A stretch of DNA of 64,000 nt from Soehngenia sp. (lineage in GTDB: Bacteria; Bacillota; Clostridia; Tissierellales; Tissierellaceae), in the NCBI GenBank assembly GCA_024637045.1, contig JAGXFX010000018.1, forward strand, positions 3,817 through 67,816, read 5' to 3'. Each line of letters begins with the position of its first letter. Position 1 is the stretch's first letter. Positions 22,877 through 51,488 of this stretch are shown in pieces. Made by a program: the position numbers and the translations under genes. Under the pieces are notes generated by a model that saw nothing but the letters and a program-made list of their open reading frames with translations, was not told the origin of the DNA and searched no databases.

Positions 22877-23506
22877 ATGAGCACAGGAAGAAAACTTTTA
22901 ATTGGATTAAGCTTAATTGTGTTTTTAGTTATAGGATTTATGGTTTCAGGAAAGCCCGAGGGAGTTTTATTGGACCAATCCATTATGGATTTAGTACACG
23001 CTAATAATAATATTATAGTTATAAGGATAATGGAAGTAATATCATTTCTTGGATCTGAAGTTTTTCTATTCCCAGTGATGGGTACTGCGATAGCCTATTT
23101 CACAATAAAAAAAAGATACTATATTGCAGGTCTCTTGTTGGTGTCGTCCCTTGGCAGCTTTATTGTGAACTATATTCTTAAACAGATTTTTCAGAGACCA
23201 AGACCATTCGAATATTTTTTGGTTGAACAGGGAGGATTAAGCTATCCCAGCGGACATTCCATGGTTTCAATGACTATGTTTCTTACCATCGCTTATTTGT
23301 TGACCAGAAAGCGCATGAATGGAAGATATAAAAAAAGAATCTGGATAGCAGTTTTTATATACATTCTTTTAATGGGAATCAGCAGGGTTTTTCTAGGAGT
23401 TCATTGGCCATCGGATATAATCGGAGGCTATGCTGCTGGATATTTATTCTTCGAAGCGTATATTCCATTCGTAAATTCAAGGCTATTAAAAAGAGATTCC
23501 ATCTGA
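22877..23506 (+). CDS. PAP2-family membrane phosphatase
   Basis: K..F.RPRP, YPSGH, SRVFLGVHWPSD motifs; ATG 22877 after AGGAGG. Confidence 0.9.
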   Translation: MSTGRKLLIGLSLIVFLVIGFMVSGKPEGVLLDQSIMDLVHANNNIIVIRIMEVISFLGSEVFLFPVMGTAIAYFTIKKRYYIAGLLLVSSLGSFIVNYILKQIFQRPRPFEYFLVEQGGLSYPSGHSMVSMTMFLTIAYLLTRKRMNGRYKKRIWIAVFIYILLMGISRVFLGVHWPSDIIGGYAAGYLFFEAYIPFVNSRLLKRDSI

Positions 23507-23521
23507 TTGGAATCTCTTTTT
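23488..23521. terminator. Bidirectional terminator between the convergent PAP2 and ABC genes
   Basis: AAAAAGAGATTCCA/TGGAATCTCTTTTT inverted repeat. Confidence 0.8.
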
Positions 23522-23526
23522 ATGAT

Positions 23527-25344
23527 CTATATTTCATTGATACCTTCTTCATCTAAATATTGATTTGTATACAATCTGTAATAATACCCTTTTTTGTCAA
23601 GGAGCTCCTTGTGGGTACCATCCTCGGTAATCTCACCTTTTCTAATTACAAGAATCCGATCTGCACTTCTGATTGTAGATAGTCTATGTGCAATAACAAA
23701 GCTGGTTCTTCCCGTCAGGACCTTTGTGATTGCATTCTGTATGATTTTTTCTGTTTCAGTATCTATTGAAGAAGTCGCTTCATCCAAAACAAATAGCGAA
23801 GGGTTCCTTATTATTGCCCGGGCAAATGATATCAGTTGCTTCTGACCTGTTGACAACAAGCTTCCACCTTCACCTACCTGTGTATTGTATCCATTTTCAA
23901 GATCAATTATGAAATCATGAGCGTTGACGATTCTACACGCTTCTTCGATTTCATCCTGAGTGGCGTCAAGTCGTCCATAACGGATATTATCAACAATCGA
24001 CCCACTGAACAAATGTGGACTTTGCAATACATAGCCCAGATTATTATGAATCCACTGAATAGGCATCTTGCGATAGTCTGTTCCATCAACGAGTATCCTT
24101 CCTGAGGTTGGCTCATAGAATCTGCAGAAAAGATTAACAATAGTAGATTTACCGGAGCCTGTCTCACCTACAAGAGCAACTGTTTCACCAGGTTTTACGG
24201 AAAGATTAAAATTCTTCAGTACAGGCTCCTGAGGCTGATAAGAAAAAGATACGTTTTCAAAATCGATAGTACCCTTTATTGGTGGAAGGAGTTCTTTTTT
24301 TTGATCAAAAATATTTCCAAATGTCTCAAGTACATATCCTTCGTCCCTGATTTCAGGAGTTTCCTTTAACAGTGAAAATACTCTTTCAGCCGATGCCTGG
24401 GCACTTTGGAATTCTGCAAATATTACAGCCATTTGTCTGATCGGTTCGAAAAATTGTGCTGTATAGGAAATAAATGCAACAAGAGTACCGTAGGTTATTA
24501 TCCCCTCCATTATATAGCCTGAACCATAAGAAAAGGCGAGTGCAGTACCCACGCTTCCCAGTCCGATTACAAGTGGAAGATAAATTGATGAAATTATTGC
24601 TGCCTTGATGGACTGATTTTTCATAGATCCTGTAAGATGTGAGAATTCAAAAAGATTCTTATCTTCTCGTACAAGAGTTTTTGTAGTCTTTGCGCCTTGA
24701 ATATCTTCATTGAATGCACCGGTAATCTGCGAATTAATCTTTCGGATTTTCCTCTGTGCTCCGAGAATTTTTTTCTGAAAAACAACACTTAAAACAGCAA
24801 GAGCGGGAACTACGGATAAGGTAATAAGCGCTAGCACCGGATTAAGGATTATCATGTATACAGATATTCCAGTCATTATTGCCAAGCCCCAAGCAAGATC
24901 TACAATCCCCCATGATATTGTTTCACTCAATCTTGTTACATCAGATGTCATTCTCGCCATCAACCAGCCAACTGCCTTGTTATCATAATATGATAGTGGA
25001 AGCTCTTGTAGACGAATAAATCCAAGTCTTCTTATATCATGAGCCATTGTGGTTTCAAGCCTGCCTGCCATTCTAATAAATAAAAATATCAACAGACTTA
25101 ATGAAATTACGGCGGAAAGATAAGCTCCAATAAACAATGGGAGACCATCCATGGATCCGTTTCTTACGAATTCATCTATTGCATATTTGGCAAGCATGGG
25201 AAAGCTAGCATCTATAATCCCAAGAAGAACCATCATTACAATCAATTTGATAAATCTTTTTTTATATGGCTTTAGGTAAGTATAGAAATCCCTCCATACT
25301 CCCAGGCTCAACTTTTTAGTGGTATTGAAATTTGTCTCATCCAT
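23527..25344 (-). CDS. Type IV ABC exporter half (TMD+NBD), subunit 2
   Basis: 6-TM domain + GETGSGKS, signature LSTGQ, Walker B LFVLDE. Confidence 0.92.
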   Translation of the reverse strand: MDETNFNTTKKLSLGVWRDFYTYLKPYKKRFIKLIVMMVLLGIIDASFPMLAKYAIDEFVRNGSMDGLPLFIGAYLSAVISLSLLIFLFIRMAGRLETTMAHDIRRLGFIRLQELPLSYYDNKAVGWLMARMTSDVTRLSETISWGIVDLAWGLAIMTGISVYMIILNPVLALITLSVVPALAVLSVVFQKKILGAQRKIRKINSQITGAFNEDIQGAKTTKTLVREDKNLFEFSHLTGSMKNQSIKAAIISSIYLPLVIGLGSVGTALAFSYGSGYIMEGIITYGTLVAFISYTAQFFEPIRQMAVIFAEFQSAQASAERVFSLLKETPEIRDEGYVLETFGNIFDQKKELLPPIKGTIDFENVSFSYQPQEPVLKNFNLSVKPGETVALVGETGSGKSTIVNLFCRFYEPTSGRILVDGTDYRKMPIQWIHNNLGYVLQSPHLFSGSIVDNIRYGRLDATQDEIEEACRIVNAHDFIIDLENGYNTQVGEGGSLLSTGQKQLISFARAIIRNPSLFVLDEATSSIDTETEKIIQNAITKVLTGRTSFVIAHRLSTIRSADRILVIRKGEITEDGTHKELLDKKGYYYRLYTNQYLDEEGINEI

Positions 25345-25355
25345 GATGATTCCTC

Positions 25356-27149
25356 CTAAGCTTTCATTACATCATATTCAAGAGAGGCTTGAATATCATA
25401 AATTCTTTTATACAATCCTTCCTGAAGAAGGAGTTCCTTGTGGGTTCCGCTCTGGACTATGGTACCTTTGTCCAGGACGATTATCATATCAGCATCTGAT
25501 ACAGTTGAAATTCTATGAGAAATCACGAAAGTTGTCGCCACATTTTTTCTTTTTTCAAGAGCTTTTCGTATTTCCATATCTGTTTCGGAATCAACTGCTG
25601 AAAGTGAATCGTCGAATATAACTATTGGGGTTTCACTGATTATTGCCCTTGCGATAGCCATTCTTTGTTTTTGGCCACCTGAGAGCGATACTCCACGTTC
25701 TCCAACCATGGTTTCATACTGCTTGTCAAATGACAATATATCATTGTGTATTGCTGCAACCTTGGCAGCGTTAAATACTGATTTTTCCTGCTTTTGAGGA
25801 TCAGTAAATCTTATATTTTCCTTAATAGATCTAGCGTACAGGAATGGTTCCTGTAGAACAAGGGCAATGTTGTTTCTAATCCAGTGTCTGTCGATATTCT
25901 TGAGTTCCAATCCATCAATTCTAATGGATCCAGATGAATAATCATAAAGTCGAGGCAACAGATTTACCAAGGTTGTTTTACCTGAGCCAGTTGGACCCAT
26001 TATGGCAATAGTATCCCCTTTATTTACATGAAAACTGATGTTCTGAAGCACCTGTTTCTTACCATCATAGGAAAACCCGACATTTTCGAAGTCGATCTCG
26101 CCTGCAATCTCAGGTTCCTCGCCGTTTTCTACAAGTGGTTCGACGGGGATACTTAGAATTTCGCTTACTCTGTCAATGGAAACAGTAGCCTTTCCCATAT
26201 CCGTGAGAATTCTGCCGAGCTGACGTACTGGCCAAATTAGCATATTGACATAGCTTATAAATGCAACCAGCACTCCGATTGTAATCCTTTCGTTGATCAC
26301 CATAAAAGTACCTGCCACTATTACAACTCCAACCTGGAACATACTAAGAAAGTCTGACAAGGACCAATAAATTGCCAGGTTGTCTATAAGCTTATTGACC
26401 AGTTGCCTATAAGAAGAATTATCTGAATCAAACTTTTCAAGTTCAAATGATTCCCTCCCAAAGGCTTTAACCACTCGTATACCAGTAAGATTCTCCTGTA
26501 GAGTAGTTGATAATTTAGCTTCAGCTTCATCAGCTTCTTTGAAATCTCTCTGAATTCTTTTAAAGAAAGCATATGCAAAACCAAAGATTACAGGAACCAG
26601 AGCCATTGAGTAGATTGTCATACCAACATGGAGTGAAAGCATTGACCACAAAATAAAAGCCAGCATGGACAACGAACCAGCTACTTCAACAAGCTGTATT
26701 CCTAAAAACCTTTTTATGGTTTCAACATCTGATGTGCATCGTTGAATAAGATCACCTGTGTCAGTTTTTACATGATAGCTGTATGGCAACTTTTGAATAT
26801 GGTCGTAGAGTTTATTTCTAAGATTCATTGAAATATTTTCAGATGCCTCAGCTGACAGAAATCCTTTGAAATAAAGGAAAATACCACGTAAAGCCGTATT
26901 CAGTACAATAACAACACCAATAATCCACAAGCTCCTTCGCAACAGCTCAATTCCTCCAAGAGCGTTAATTATTCTATTTGCAAGATAATTTGTGATGGGC
27001 TCACTTCCGATTACGGAATCTATTGCGGTGCTCAGTATAATAGGTCCTACAGCATAAAAAAGCTGAGAAATTGTTATGGTAAGCATCGCAAGAATAAATA
27101 TCATTCTGTACCCTTTTAAAAAGGGGTATAATTTTTTAAACTGTTTCAT
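25356..27149 (-). CDS. Type IV ABC exporter half (TMD+NBD), subunit 1
   Basis: 6-TM domain + [13 protein letters not shown], Walker B IVIFDD; ATG 27149 after GGAGG. Confidence 0.92.
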   Translation of the reverse strand: MKQFKKLYPFLKGYRMIFILAMLTITISQLFYAVGPIILSTAIDSVIGSEPITNYLANRIINALGGIELLRRSLWIIGVVIVLNTALRGIFLYFKGFLSAEASENISMNLRNKLYDHIQKLPYSYHVKTDTGDLIQRCTSDVETIKRFLGIQLVEVAGSLSMLAFILWSMLSLHVGMTIYSMALVPVIFGFAYAFFKRIQRDFKEADEAEAKLSTTLQENLTGIRVVKAFGRESFELEKFDSDNSSYRQLVNKLIDNLAIYWSLSDFLSMFQVGVVIVAGTFMVINERITIGVLVAFISYVNMLIWPVRQLGRILTDMGKATVSIDRVSEILSIPVEPLVENGEEPEIAGEIDFENVGFSYDGKKQVLQNISFHVNKGDTIAIMGPTGSGKTTLVNLLPRLYDYSSGSIRIDGLELKNIDRHWIRNNIALVLQEPFLYARSIKENIRFTDPQKQEKSVFNAAKVAAIHNDILSFDKQYETMVGERGVSLSGGQKQRMAIARAIISETPIVIFDDSLSAVDSETDMEIRKALEKRKNVATTFVISHRISTVSDADMIIVLDKGTIVQSGTHKELLLQEGLYKRIYDIQASLEYDVMKA

Positions 27150-27160
27150 AGTTTTCCTCC

Positions 27161-27191
27161 AAAAAAAAGCCATAGGTCAAAAACCTATGGC
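27161..27191 (-). terminator. Attenuator-type terminator just upstream of the ABC exporter RBS
   Basis: Minus strand GCCATAGG-TTTTTGA-CCTATGGC followed by 8 T. Confidence 0.8.
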
Positions 27192-27232
27192 TCAAGTATA
27201 ATTTATATATTCAAAAAATCATAGGCGAGCAC

Positions 27233-27331
27233 CTATAATGGACAAGTCAAAAACATCAGTCCAGGGTATAGGCCATAGTGTTCTTTGCAATTAGTAAAAT
27301 TATTTTTCATCAATCCATTCGTTAATATCAT
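27233..27331 (-). CDS. Putative 32-aa leader peptide MILTNGLMKNNFTNCKEHYGLYPGLMFLTCPL
   Basis: AAGGGAGG RBS 8 nt before ATG 27331; stop TAG lies inside a terminator-like hairpin; located between the promoter and the ABC genes. Confidence 0.6.
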   Translation of the reverse strand: MILTNGLMKNNFTNCKEHYGLYPGLMFLTCPL

Positions 27332-27369
27332 AGTCATGGCCTCCCTTCTTAGATTTTACTTACTAGTAT

Positions 27370-27397
27370 ATTTTATAACAAAGCGTTGAAATGTCAA
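27370..27397 (-). promoter_or_regulatory. SigA-type promoter for the leader/ABC operon
   Basis: TTGACA-16 bp-TAAAAT on the minus strand. Confidence 0.6.
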
Positions 27398-27412
27398 CAT
27401 TTATTTTTAGTG

Positions 27413-28090
27413 CTATTTTAGTTCTTCTTCAAGATTCTTTAGATCTAGAATCTTAATCCTATTTTTATAAAAGTCAATTAGTTCATCTTCTCTCATTCTC
27501 ATCAGCTCCCTTGAAAGAGAAGGTCTTGGAATATTGAGAAGCTCTGCCATCTTCTTTCTACTATAAGGAAGAAGTAAATATTTGGATTTTTGTCTTCCGT
27601 ATTCCAACAGGAGTATATTAACAATTTTTTTTCTAGTACTATCCAGAGAAAGGCTTGTAATTCTATCATTTAGCATGTGAATTCTTCTGGAAAGAACACC
27701 AGCAAAGTTTTCAAGGACTCTTGGGTTTCTGCTTAACACTTGAATCAGCTCAGATCTCGGGATATTCATTACGCAGCTGTCAGATGTTGACATTACTGTT
27801 GCAGGATATTCTTTTTTATCAGAGAAGACCAGAGATTCAGCAAATACATTTCCAGCTGTAAAATGGCTTATTGTTACAATTTTTCCAGATGAAAAGGGCT
27901 TATGGATTTCAATGTCTCCCGAAAGTATAATGGAGAGATTATCACAATCATCACCTTCGATTGCAACCACGTCTTGATTTTTGTAACATTTTACAGAGTA
28001 ATTAATTCCATCCATCAATGAAAGAATTTCCTCATTGGCAAGGCTGTCGAACAATATACATTTTGATAGTGCATCCATAGAAAAACTCAA
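27413..28090 (-). CDS. Crp/Fnr-family transcriptional regulator (HcpR-like)
   Basis: cNMP-type beta-barrel (GNVFAE), C-terminal HTH MAELLNIPRPSLSREL; TTG start after GAGGTG. Confidence 0.88.
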   Translation of the reverse strand: MSFSMDALSKCILFDSLANEEILSLMDGINYSVKCYKNQDVVAIEGDDCDNLSIILSGDIEIHKPFSSGKIVTISHFTAGNVFAESLVFSDKKEYPATVMSTSDSCVMNIPRSELIQVLSRNPRVLENFAGVLSRRIHMLNDRITSLSLDSTRKKIVNILLLEYGRQKSKYLLLPYSRKKMAELLNIPRPSLSRELMRMREDELIDFYKNRIKILDLKNLEEELK

Positions 28091-50147: not shown

Positions 50148-51488
50148 ATGGAGATAAGTATACCCATATATATAGAAAATATTATTGAGAGATTGGAAAA
50201 GGCAGGATTCAGCGTGCATCTTGTAGGTGGTTGTGTAAGAGATTCAATTCTAGGGAAAACACCTGTGGACTATGATCTTGCAACTTCTGCTACACCCGTT
50301 CAGATTATCGCACTATTCAGTGATAAAAAAACCGTTGAATTAGGCAAGGAATATGGAACGGTTGTAATCGTTGAAAAAGAAAGTAATGTAGAGGTCACTA
50401 CTTACAGGATAGATGGAGCTTATTTGGATGGAAGAAGACCAGACAAGGTAGGTTTTACTGAAGACATTTTGGAGGATCTTAGACGTAGGGATTTTACAAT
50501 TAACGCAATTGCGTATCATCCTGATAGAGGGTTGATGGATCCTTTCAATGGGATAGGGGATATAGGAGACAGTTTAGTTCGGAGTGTGGGAAATCCAAGA
50601 GCGAGGCTATCAGAGGATCACTTGCGAATTTTAAGAGCTGTAAGATTTGCCACGCAATTGGATTTTCTAATAGATATCAAGACATCGGAGGCATGCATGG
50701 ATTTGGCTCCTAAACTTGAAACTGTAAGTATTGACAGAATAAGAGATGAACTTTTCAAAATTATTTTAACTAAAAAGCCTTCAAGAGGATTTCTGCTTAT
50801 GAGAAGTCTGGGCATACTTAAAGAAGTCATTCCGGAACTAATACCTGCAATAGGTTTTGATCAACGGAATCCTTATCACGATAGATCCGTATTCCAGCAT
50901 ACTCTTACTGTTATGGACAATACGCCACCTGTTCTCCATGTGAGATTGGCAGCATTGCTTCATGACATTGGCAAACCATATACTTTTACCTTGGATGACA
51001 AAGGTGTGGGGCATTTCTATGGACACGATAAAAAAAGTGTAGAGATTGGAAAAGAGATTCTAACTAGACTTAACTGTTCAACAGAGCTTATAGACTCGAC
51101 ACTAAGACTTGTAAAAGAGCATATGATACATCATCCTGATCTTAAAAAGAAGGGTCTAAAAAGACAACTACAAAGAGTTGGAGAAGACAGAATATATGAC
51201 CTGGTTGATCTTCAAGTAGCTGACAGGCTAAGTAAAAGTGGCAATAAAGATATTTCCAACCTTCTAGCAAAGAAGAAGGCAATAGATTCAATCCTTTATG
51301 CAAAAGAGCCTTTCCGAAGGAAGCATATGGCAATAAATGGTGATGACCTAAAAGAGATGGGTTATACGCAGGGGAAGATCATAGGCAAGATACTGGAGTA
51401 TCTTTTAAATTGTGTATTGGAGAAGCCAGAACTGAACAAGAAGGAAACACTGAAAGATATTGCAAGAGATATTTATCCTTTGGATTAG
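50148..51488 (+). CDS. cca: CCA-adding tRNA nucleotidyltransferase / poly(A) polymerase family with HD domain
   Basis: VGGCVRD...DYD, EVTTYR, RRDFTINA, EDHLRILRA.RF, ALLHDIGKP. Confidence 0.88.
   Translation: MEISIPIYIENIIERLEKAGFSVHLVGGCVRDSILGKTPVDYDLATSATPVQIIALFSDKKTVELGKEYGTVVIVEKESNVEVTTYRIDGAYLDGRRPDKVGFTEDILEDLRRRDFTINAIAYHPDRGLMDPFNGIGDIGDSLVRSVGNPRARLSEDHLRILRAVRFATQLDFLIDIKTSEACMDLAPKLETVSIDRIRDELFKIILTKKPSRGFLLMRSLGILKEVIPELIPAIGFDQRNPYHDRSVFQHTLTVMDNTPPVLHVRLAALLHDIGKPYTFTLDDKGVGHFYGHDKKSVEIGKEILTRLNCSTELIDSTLRLVKEHMIHHPDLKKKGLKRQLQRVGEDRIYDLVDLQVADRLSKSGNKDISNLLAKKKAIDSILYAKEPFRRKHMAINGDDLKEMGYTQGKIIGKILEYLLNCVLEKPELNKKETLKDIARDIYPLD

Follow-up and report, generated by a model that had tools for sequence, protein, structure and literature searches.

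In the trp leader of Escherichia coli, untranslated RNA pairs segments 1:2 and 3:4 and terminates, full translation masks segment 2, and stalling in segment 1 allows 2:3 pairing and read-through. In the ermK leader, a leader peptide is followed by two consecutive rho-independent terminators, and the gene downstream is inducible by a drug that targets the ribosome. In the bmrB-bmrCD system of Bacillus subtilis, slowed translation of a leader open reading frame (ORF) is proposed to relieve a terminator under lincomycin, erythromycin and chloramphenicol (Reilman et al. 2014, PMC4191407), and in the msrD and mef(E)-mel leaders, leader-peptide stalling reportedly relieves a rho-independent terminator ahead of the Mef efflux pump and the ABC-F protein MsrD (PMC10314930, PMC4335068). 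Here, we describe a leader of this kind in a 64,000-nucleotide stretch of the genome of Soehngenia sp. (assembly GCA_024637045.1, contig JAGXFX010000018.1, positions 3,817 to 67,816; hereafter the window), in which it lies directly upstream of two genes for an ATP-binding cassette (ABC) exporter. The original prediction, made from the letters of the window, had proposed a switch like that of bmrB-bmrCD, built from an upstream ORF (uORF), two terminators and mutually exclusive RNA folds. We consider it likely that the uORF-ABC1-ABC2 unit is gated by this leader through ribosome-dependent (leader-peptide) transcription attenuation, with the ON state set by a ribosome that is halted on or close to the uORF start.

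The elements of the leader are all read on the minus strand, in the 250 nt between a Crp/Fnr-family regulator gene and the first exporter gene (Table 1). A sigma-70-type promoter, the top promoter-like site on that strand within 7 kb in a promoter scan, is expected to start transcription near 27363; its -35 region (AAATGTTGACAT) is kept in loci of the same genus. It is followed by a Shine-Dalgarno (SD) sequence, by the uORF, the translation of which is MILTNGLMKNNFTNCKEHYGLYPGLMFLTCPL, and by two predicted intrinsic terminators. The first of these, T1 (hairpin 1), overlaps the uORF, the stop codon of which falls inside the 5' arm of T1; T2, the strongest terminator-like site found by scanning the minus strand, abuts the SD of the first exporter gene. 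A second in-frame ATG, at 27337, would leave just 2 nt to the uORF SD, and the 8-nt spacing to the ATG at 27331 is the one kept in relatives. The arrangement exceeds chance: the leader has a folding energy of -54.3 kcal/mol (z = -3.85), a stability matched by none of 200 shuffles. Promoter, ribosome-binding site, 32-residue uORF, hairpin 1 with its U6 tract and terminator 2 with its U8 tract all have the positions and sequences that had been proposed for them, with hairpin 1 over the uORF stop and terminator 2 right before the ribosome-binding site of the exporter gene. The complementarity that had been read within the uORF is likewise present, CUAUGGCCUAUA at 27278-27267 matching the 5' arms of both hairpin 1 and terminator 2.

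The mechanism that we propose would involve six RNA segments: S0 (the SD and start region of the uORF), S1 (within the uORF), B and C (the 5' and 3' arms of T1), and D and E (the 5' and 3' arms of T2). S1, C and E share the core CCUAUG/A, and B and D share its complement (C/UAUAGG); therefore, S1 can pair with B (helix AT1) and C with D (helix AT2). In the window, S1 contributes UAUGGCCU (27277-27270) and CCCU (27266-27263) to a helix with S0, termed P1, and GCCUAUA (27273-27267) to AT1.

Pairing and covariation of these helices were counted on an alignment of 17 leaders, with 500 shuffles and slid helices as controls. On the same leaders, RNAalifold predicts three helices unprompted, and these are P1, T1 and T2. 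Together they are paired in 95.2% of cells and contain 10 pairs that changed on both sides, a result reached by 0 of the 500 shuffles, and the slid controls are paired in 27-49%. P1 is the best-supported helix of the leader, being 100% paired with three pairs changed on both sides; it is formed here by AGGCCAUG:UAUGGCCU, extended by AGGG:CCCU, and becomes AGGUCGUG:CACGACCU in most other lineages. The T1 stem has four covarying pairs and the T2 stem has three. Because P1 pairs the SD and start region with S1, the leader ORF's own ribosome-binding site would be closed once S1 has been transcribed. G-U pairs are present in the stems and loop lengths vary (3-12 nt in most hairpins, far longer in one), which argues that the constraint acts on the sense-strand RNA and not on DNA operators.

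The alternative fold is also conserved, in that AT1 and AT2 together are 92.3% paired on the alignment versus 19-46% in the slid controls. AT1 by itself is 95% paired and has two covarying pairs, one of which occurs as G-C, A-U and G-U and the other of which changes from G-C to A-U. It stacks on the small hairpin P2, which places S1 beside B, and a P2-type hairpin of differing sequence is found in most leaders. In a co-evolution test that tolerates bulges, duplex energies of cognate segments were compared with those obtained after permuting the partners among 30 leaders (3000 permutations). S0:S1, S1:B, B:C and D:E all co-evolve (0 of 3000 permutations as good), the signal for C:D is marginal (p = 0.02), and the control combinations S1:D, B:E, S0:B and S0:D give no co-evolution signal among these leaders.

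These data bear on the original prediction in several ways. Its core, a translated leader ORF combined with exclusive folds in the manner of bmrB-bmrCD, is supported by order-wide conservation, by the openness of the ORF and by covariation, and the mutually exclusive terminator and antiterminator folds in particular by covariation in both pairings together with that conservation and a uORF that is kept open. Its set of folds is retained with regard to T1, T2 and the pairing of S1 with hairpin 1, and lacked P1, the helix that sequesters the uORF SD and start. The two antiterminator pairings that it had named fared differently: that of CCUAUA with the 5' arm of hairpin 1 (S1:B) co-evolves (0 of 3000 permutations) and includes the two covarying pairs of AT1, whereas that of CUAUGGC with the 5' arm of terminator 2 (S1:D) is present as complementarity in the sequence, yet does not co-evolve (p = 0.995). 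Given this permutation result, S1:D was dropped as an antiterminator in favor of a C:D relay, and it is more likely that the 3' arm of hairpin 1, once freed, acts against terminator 2.

Conservation of the uORF points to its translation. The first 19 full leaders all carry GGAGG, a spacer of 5-11 nt (8 nt in most) and an ORF of 21-33 codons. A covariance model was then built from the S1-to-T2 part only, i.e. excluding the SD and the uORF start, and the 13 further loci inspected from its matches all carry an SD, a uORF of 21-28 codons and P1; their downstream ABC ortholog has 51-67% identity except at one of the 13 loci, where the ortholog, at 43%, is cut at 95 aa by the contig end. In all 32 leaders the uORF is open from its start through S1, where dinucleotide shuffles would give 4.4. 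Its dimensions vary within narrow limits, with 43-70 nt from AUG to S1 and a stop codon that lies between 7 nt inside the 5' arm of T1 and 21 nt before it. The sequence of the leader peptide is not conserved and differs even among leaders that are 93% identical. The conserved RNA core is translated as YGLY here, as HDLC or RDLC in other Gudongella lineages and as (T/A/S)RPM in Tissierella-type leaders, the latter reading being in a different frame over the same core. With peptide and frame variable and ORF and RNA kept, what is conserved is therefore translation as such, along with the RNA, and not a peptide motif. For the same reason, a conserved arrest peptide at the YGLY site was considered and rejected. 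A macrolide-type R/K-x-R/K motif is weakly enriched (14 of the 32 peptides versus 8.9 expected; none in the clade of the window). The first part of the peptides consists of 18% Ile, 15.5% Leu, 14% Asn and 10.6% Lys, and none of the peptides has a run of one regulatory codon as in classical amino-acid attenuators.

We suggest that the leader would adopt three states: (i) without a ribosome, S0:S1 pairing (P1) would lock S1, and T1, backed by T2, would halt transcription before the ABC genes, (ii) during normal translation, the ribosome would cross S1 to the stop codon at or just before T1, so that S1 would be masked and T1 or T2 would form, and (iii) if a ribosome is halted on the start codon or within roughly the first dozen codons, S0 would be blocked and S1 free, S1 would take B to form AT1 on P2, C would take D to form AT2, E would be left single-stranded, and polymerase would enter the exporter genes. 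The natural signal for the ON state would be an arrest of translation, e.g. by ribosome-targeting antibiotics, and the leader may have a role in sensing antibiotics or stress. More tentatively, we entertain a stricter version of this model, in which the order-wide RNA family would act as an SD-gated 'domino' attenuator with its own ribosome-binding site as anti-antiterminator, and would sense arrest at initiation or early elongation independently of the sequence translated. In that version, ribosomes would load only during the short interval before S1 is transcribed, only a ribosome frozen near initiation would switch the leader ON, and three strand exchanges (S0:S1 to S1:B to C:D) over ~150 nt would defeat two terminators.

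The three-state logic is shared with trp-type attenuators, S0, S1, B and C corresponding to segments 1, 2, 3 and 4. The systems differ in that segment 1 is a run of regulatory codons in the trp type and the SD and start codon here, with no codon bias toward a single amino acid, and in that here a second terminator is chained to the first via shared arm sequences and the controlled genes encode exporters. The ermK leader differs in having a defined macrolide-responsive leader peptide and in controlling an rRNA methylase, in contrast to a pump. The likeness to bmrB-bmrCD is one of layout: in both, genes for a heterodimeric ABC exporter with a single degenerate ATP site are preceded by a short ORF that carries an SD of its own, an intrinsic terminator is combined with antiterminator and anti-antiterminator folds, and slowing of leader translation is proposed to cause read-through. 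The bmrB ORF is 162 nt long with a single terminator inside it, whereas the uORF here is 99 nt long with two terminators at or after its stop, and the predicted anti-antiterminator of bmrB has no assigned role, whereas here it is the SD and start region of the uORF. At the protein level, BmrCD (295 and 271 bits) matches the ABC subunits no better than TM287/288 or TmrAB do (313 and 308 bits). The msrD and mef(E)-mel leaders are alike in having a terminator relieved by stalling before macrolide-resistance genes and SD sequestration as part of the control; in those leaders, the arrest peptide MsrDL is specific and conserved and the sequestered SD is that of the downstream gene, whereas here the peptide is unconserved and the SD is that of the leader ORF. 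The two architectural features of the present leader in this comparison are the self-sequestered leader SD and the shared-arm relay through two terminators.

The coupling between the uORF start and the terminators was followed by equilibrium folding of the alternative structures, a check that the original prediction had proposed, with the SD/AUG region made unavailable for pairing in imitation of a parked ribosome. This mask abolishes P1. In five of the seven leaders of the window's clade, AT1 then displaces T1 at equilibrium (P = 0.6-0.9), and T1 persists in the other two (L015 and L016). The cost of an unpaired T1 3' arm is cut by a mean of 5.3 kcal/mol (a reduction in 29 of 30 leaders) and that of an unpaired T2 3' arm by a mean of 4.4 kcal/mol (27 of 30 leaders); in the window itself, the costs fall from 8.5 to 2.6 kcal/mol for T1 and from 15.0 to 6.3 kcal/mol for T2. 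The mask lowers both costs, and both terminators are thus linked to whether the start region is occupied. AT2 of the Tissierella-type leaders (-10 to -22 kcal/mol) is at least as strong as T2 (-12 to -19 kcal/mol).

Several observations weigh against the attenuator model. T2 is fully formed at equilibrium in the window's clade even with S0 masked, and the relay step is weak in this clade, AT2 having -8.2 kcal/mol versus -17.6 kcal/mol for T2. Thus, read-through of T2 in this clade would require kinetic trapping; C:D spans the loop-proximal half of D, and by this kinetic argument the T2 hairpin would have to nucleate where C:D sits. AT2 is conserved and essentially invariant, with no pair changed on both sides, and covariation in general is located largely at a few clade boundaries, so that independent events are few. 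The 32 leader peptides contain no conserved arrest motif that would point to a particular drug, and their frame differs between clades. RNA polymerase can outrun the ribosome in Bacillota, which makes the timing of the ribosome uncertain. Finally, one leader of the same genus (L009; G005:C105, ~1500-1640) is ~85 nt long and has one terminator and no SD, uORF or S1 before its ABC ortholog.

By BLAST, leader DNA is present in 12 of 41 related genomes, near-identical loci being labelled Gudongella sp., Tissierella or Tissierellaceae. The covariance model matches 88 of 401 Tissierellales genomes in 39 of 114 genera, usually with one copy per genome, and orthologous ABC pairs follow the leader in Gudongella, Tissierella and their relatives; a covariance search, a kind of check named in the original prediction, thus recovers the leader across the order. 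Outside the order, in ~380 genomes of the same class, the model gave only two weak matches. One of these (L127) has no uORF and no downstream ABC gene, looks like a false positive and was discarded. The other (L126; G583:C7, ~1340-1720), from another order, is a look-alike leader with a 27-codon uORF before a major facilitator superfamily (MFS) efflux transporter gene. Its P1 sequesters the SD through 13 bp of wholly different sequence (GGGGUUUUAAUGAU:AUCAUUAA.UAACC), its S1 is AACCUAUGUG (CCUAUG type), its T1 is GCCACAGG/CCUGUGGC, and it has a second terminator. On the stricter model, the design would appear to have been reused before this MFS efflux pump, and the position of L126 fits a tie between the leader design and efflux pumps. 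In Rfam, searched at permissive E-values, only chance-level matches were found, the best being the trpB motif RF04312 (25.2 bits versus a gathering threshold of 59; E = 1.1), and in the literature searched we found no description of this leader family. The leader family is new to Rfam, and its mechanism class is textbook.

A number of variants accompany the main family. The short leader L009 keeps the conserved promoter, its sole terminator being AGCCGUAGG-CCAAGA-CCUAUGGA followed by U8, and may be a decayed or differently controlled version. Two Clostridia metagenome-assembled genomes (MAGs) carry single-terminator variants (L027 and L028) ahead of ABC orthologs with 47-48% identity; in these, GGCCUCC, close to the end of a uORF of 21 codons (peptide ending ...LNRPPVFII), is the pairing partner of the SD GGAGGUC and, compared with the main family, S1 (CCUCCGG) has changed in concert with the terminator arms (CCGCAGG/CCUGUGG). 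In a Tissierella MAG (L024), ~200 nt of extra, strongly folding sequence lie between T2 and the ABC ATG, a feature unique among the leaders. In another family of the order, one contig (G143:C124) carries two equal-scoring leader copies at 23457-23647 (minus) and 50294-50484 (plus), their opposite orientation suggesting a duplicated or inverted segment.

The genes downstream of the leader are adjacent half-transporter genes with asymmetric catalytic sites, in agreement with the heterodimeric ABC exporter that had been expected there. Both subunits have the MsbA/ABCB exporter fold, are fusions of a transmembrane and a nucleotide-binding domain, and give full-length matches to MsbA-like models and to the TM288, TmrB and BmrC chains; the match to the bacterial heterodimers in the PDB is about equal (TM287/288, 313 bits; TmrAB, 308 bits; BmrCD, 295 bits). 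In subunit 1, the Walker B motif is IVIFDD, with Asp in place of the catalytic Glu (a degenerate site), and the signature is LSGGQ; in subunit 2, Walker B retains the catalytic Glu and the signature is non-canonical. The Asp-for-Glu replacement in subunit 1 together with LSTGQ in subunit 2 makes up an asymmetry that heterodimeric exporters with a single degenerate ATP site typically show and, judged by these motifs, the pair is such an exporter. A terminator-like hairpin stands directly after subunit 2, from which we take the operon to consist of the uORF, ABC1 and ABC2. Within the ABC1 coding region, 20-40 nt from its beginning, a palindrome (UACCCCUUUUUAAAAGGGUA, 27107-27130) over the YPFLKGY codons scored as terminator-like on the plus strand; a CCC...GGG hairpin with other loops is present in several orthologs, and this palindrome may reflect merely conserved Pro and Gly codons.

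Upstream, 15 nt and no terminator separate the end of the Crp/Fnr-family gene from the -35 box of the leader promoter, and 17 of 31 related loci, among them distant ones (48-60% identity), have an ortholog directly upstream. Given this linkage, control at the promoter and attenuation are combined in many lineages. The -35 box of the Gudongella clade is situated within an imperfect palindrome (27383-27400; TGTTGACATTTCAACG here and TGTTGACATTCCAACA in relatives), which could be an operator of the Crp/Fnr-family regulator.

Table 1. Features of the leader and its flanking genes in the window, with the energies of the sub-folds.
Feature	Coordinates	Strand	Sub-fold energy (kcal/mol)	Sequence or remark
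Crp/Fnr-family regulator gene	27413..28090	minus		directly upstream of the leader
Promoter, sigma-70-type	27397-27370	minus		TTGACA-16 nt-TAAAAT, matches 11/12 consensus positions
uORF SD	27347-27340	minus		AAGGGAGG, read from the sequence; core GGAGG
S0, uORF SD and spacer, 5' strand of P1	27335..27347	minus		AGGG 27346-27343 and AGGCCAUG 27342-27335
uORF (leader ORF)	27331..27233	minus		32 codons and TAG, 99 nt; ATG 27331, TAG 27235-27233
S1, switch segment within the uORF	27263..27278	minus		CUAUGGCCUAUACCCU
P1 (S0:S1)			-16.8	
P2, small hairpin between S1 and hairpin 1	27239..27263	minus		UGGAC ... GUCCA, sub-fold
AT1 (S1:B), including P2			-13.8	
T1 (hairpin 1), first and weaker predicted intrinsic terminator	27239-27218, U6 to 27213	minus	-8.5	AUUAUAGGU-GCUC-GCCUAUGAU
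AT2 (C:D)			-8.2	6 bp
T2, second and strong predicted intrinsic terminator	27193-27167, U8 to 27161	minus	-17.6	GAGCCAUAGGUU-UUU-GACCUAUGGCUU, 12 bp
ABC subunit 1	25356..27160 including SD	minus		597 aa; SD GGAGG 27160-27156, ATG 27149
ABC subunit 2	23527..25344	minus		605 aa; FVLDE Walker B, LSTGQ signature
Operon-end terminator-like hairpin	23488..23521	minus		AAAAAGAGAUUCC-loop-GGAAUCUCUUUUU, read by eye; terminator scan did not list it

If the leader is a ribosome-dependent attenuator, its signal could be other than an antibiotic, such as starvation for Ile, Leu, Asn or Lys, lost translation capacity or stringent conditions, with the pump having a physiological role in export. The richness of the leader peptides in these four residues and the lack of a conserved arrest motif would suit such a signal, the pump family gives no clue to the substrate, and the frequent linkage to a Crp/Fnr-type regulator suggests physiological control. 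However, the peptide composition is as expected from an AT-rich genome, there is no run of a single regulatory codon, the controlled genes encode exporters and not biosynthetic enzymes, and the analogue for which experiments exist is induced by drugs that target the ribosome (PMC4191407); we regard this form of the model as the less likely one, although non-antibiotic translation stress could serve as the signal just as well. Alternatively, the ribosome might not set the switch at all, and an RNA-binding protein, a small RNA or a ligand might recognize the CCAUAGG/CCUAUGG hairpins, with the uORF being incidental or modulatory. We find this improbable: although the hairpin core is unusually conserved in both terminators across genera and L009 retains a terminator with the core but without a uORF, the uORF and its SD are present in 32 of 32 full leaders, far above chance, and the 8-nt spacing is conserved. 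Moreover, the conserved nucleotides all lie in mutually pairing segments and linkers and loops vary freely, unlike in an aptamer, and the core sequence is shared because each segment needs two partners. The CCATAGG-N-CCTATGG hairpin also occurs only once in the 2.37-Mb genome, i.e. at the leader, which speaks against a regulon of such hairpins, and it has no Rfam match.

Two further explanations would remove the RNA switch altogether. The promoter, strong SD, ORF and terminators do make up a complete transcription unit, and the uORF could accordingly be an independent small-protein gene, the ABC genes being transcribed separately or by leakage. The peptide, however, is unconserved even at 93% leader identity, clades differ in the frame in which the RNA motif is read, the unit always occurs together with the ABC pair, and there is neither room for nor sign of a promoter between T2 and the ABC SD, where the U8 tract abuts GGAGG, all of which makes this explanation very improbable. 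We give even less credence to the idea that the inverted repeats are DNA operators of the neighboring Crp/Fnr-family regulator. The position of that gene directly upstream in 17 of the 31 related loci is what speaks for it; yet about half of the loci are without the regulator, the spacing of the half-sites would range over 3-12 nt in most hairpins and be far longer in one, pairing is kept through G-U pairs that are meaningful only in sense-strand RNA, and a U-run follows each repeat. We favor translation-dependent attenuation by exclusive RNA folds.

Anaerobes of the order Tissierellales are common in digesters, in sediments and at animal-associated sites, and to our knowledge almost nothing is known of the regulation of efflux in this order. 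The leader does not alter the general picture, leader-peptide attenuators ahead of exporters being already established by bmrB. It adds a testable, unannotated regulatory RNA family that is present in about a fifth of the sampled genomes of the order and is a candidate for Rfam and for genome annotation, as well as a natural example of how one conserved core, used five times, may couple ribosome occupancy of a start codon to two terminators. If the leader does respond to ribosome-targeting drugs, it would mark an inducible efflux system in these bacteria and would provide a compact sensor part for anaerobic Bacillota.

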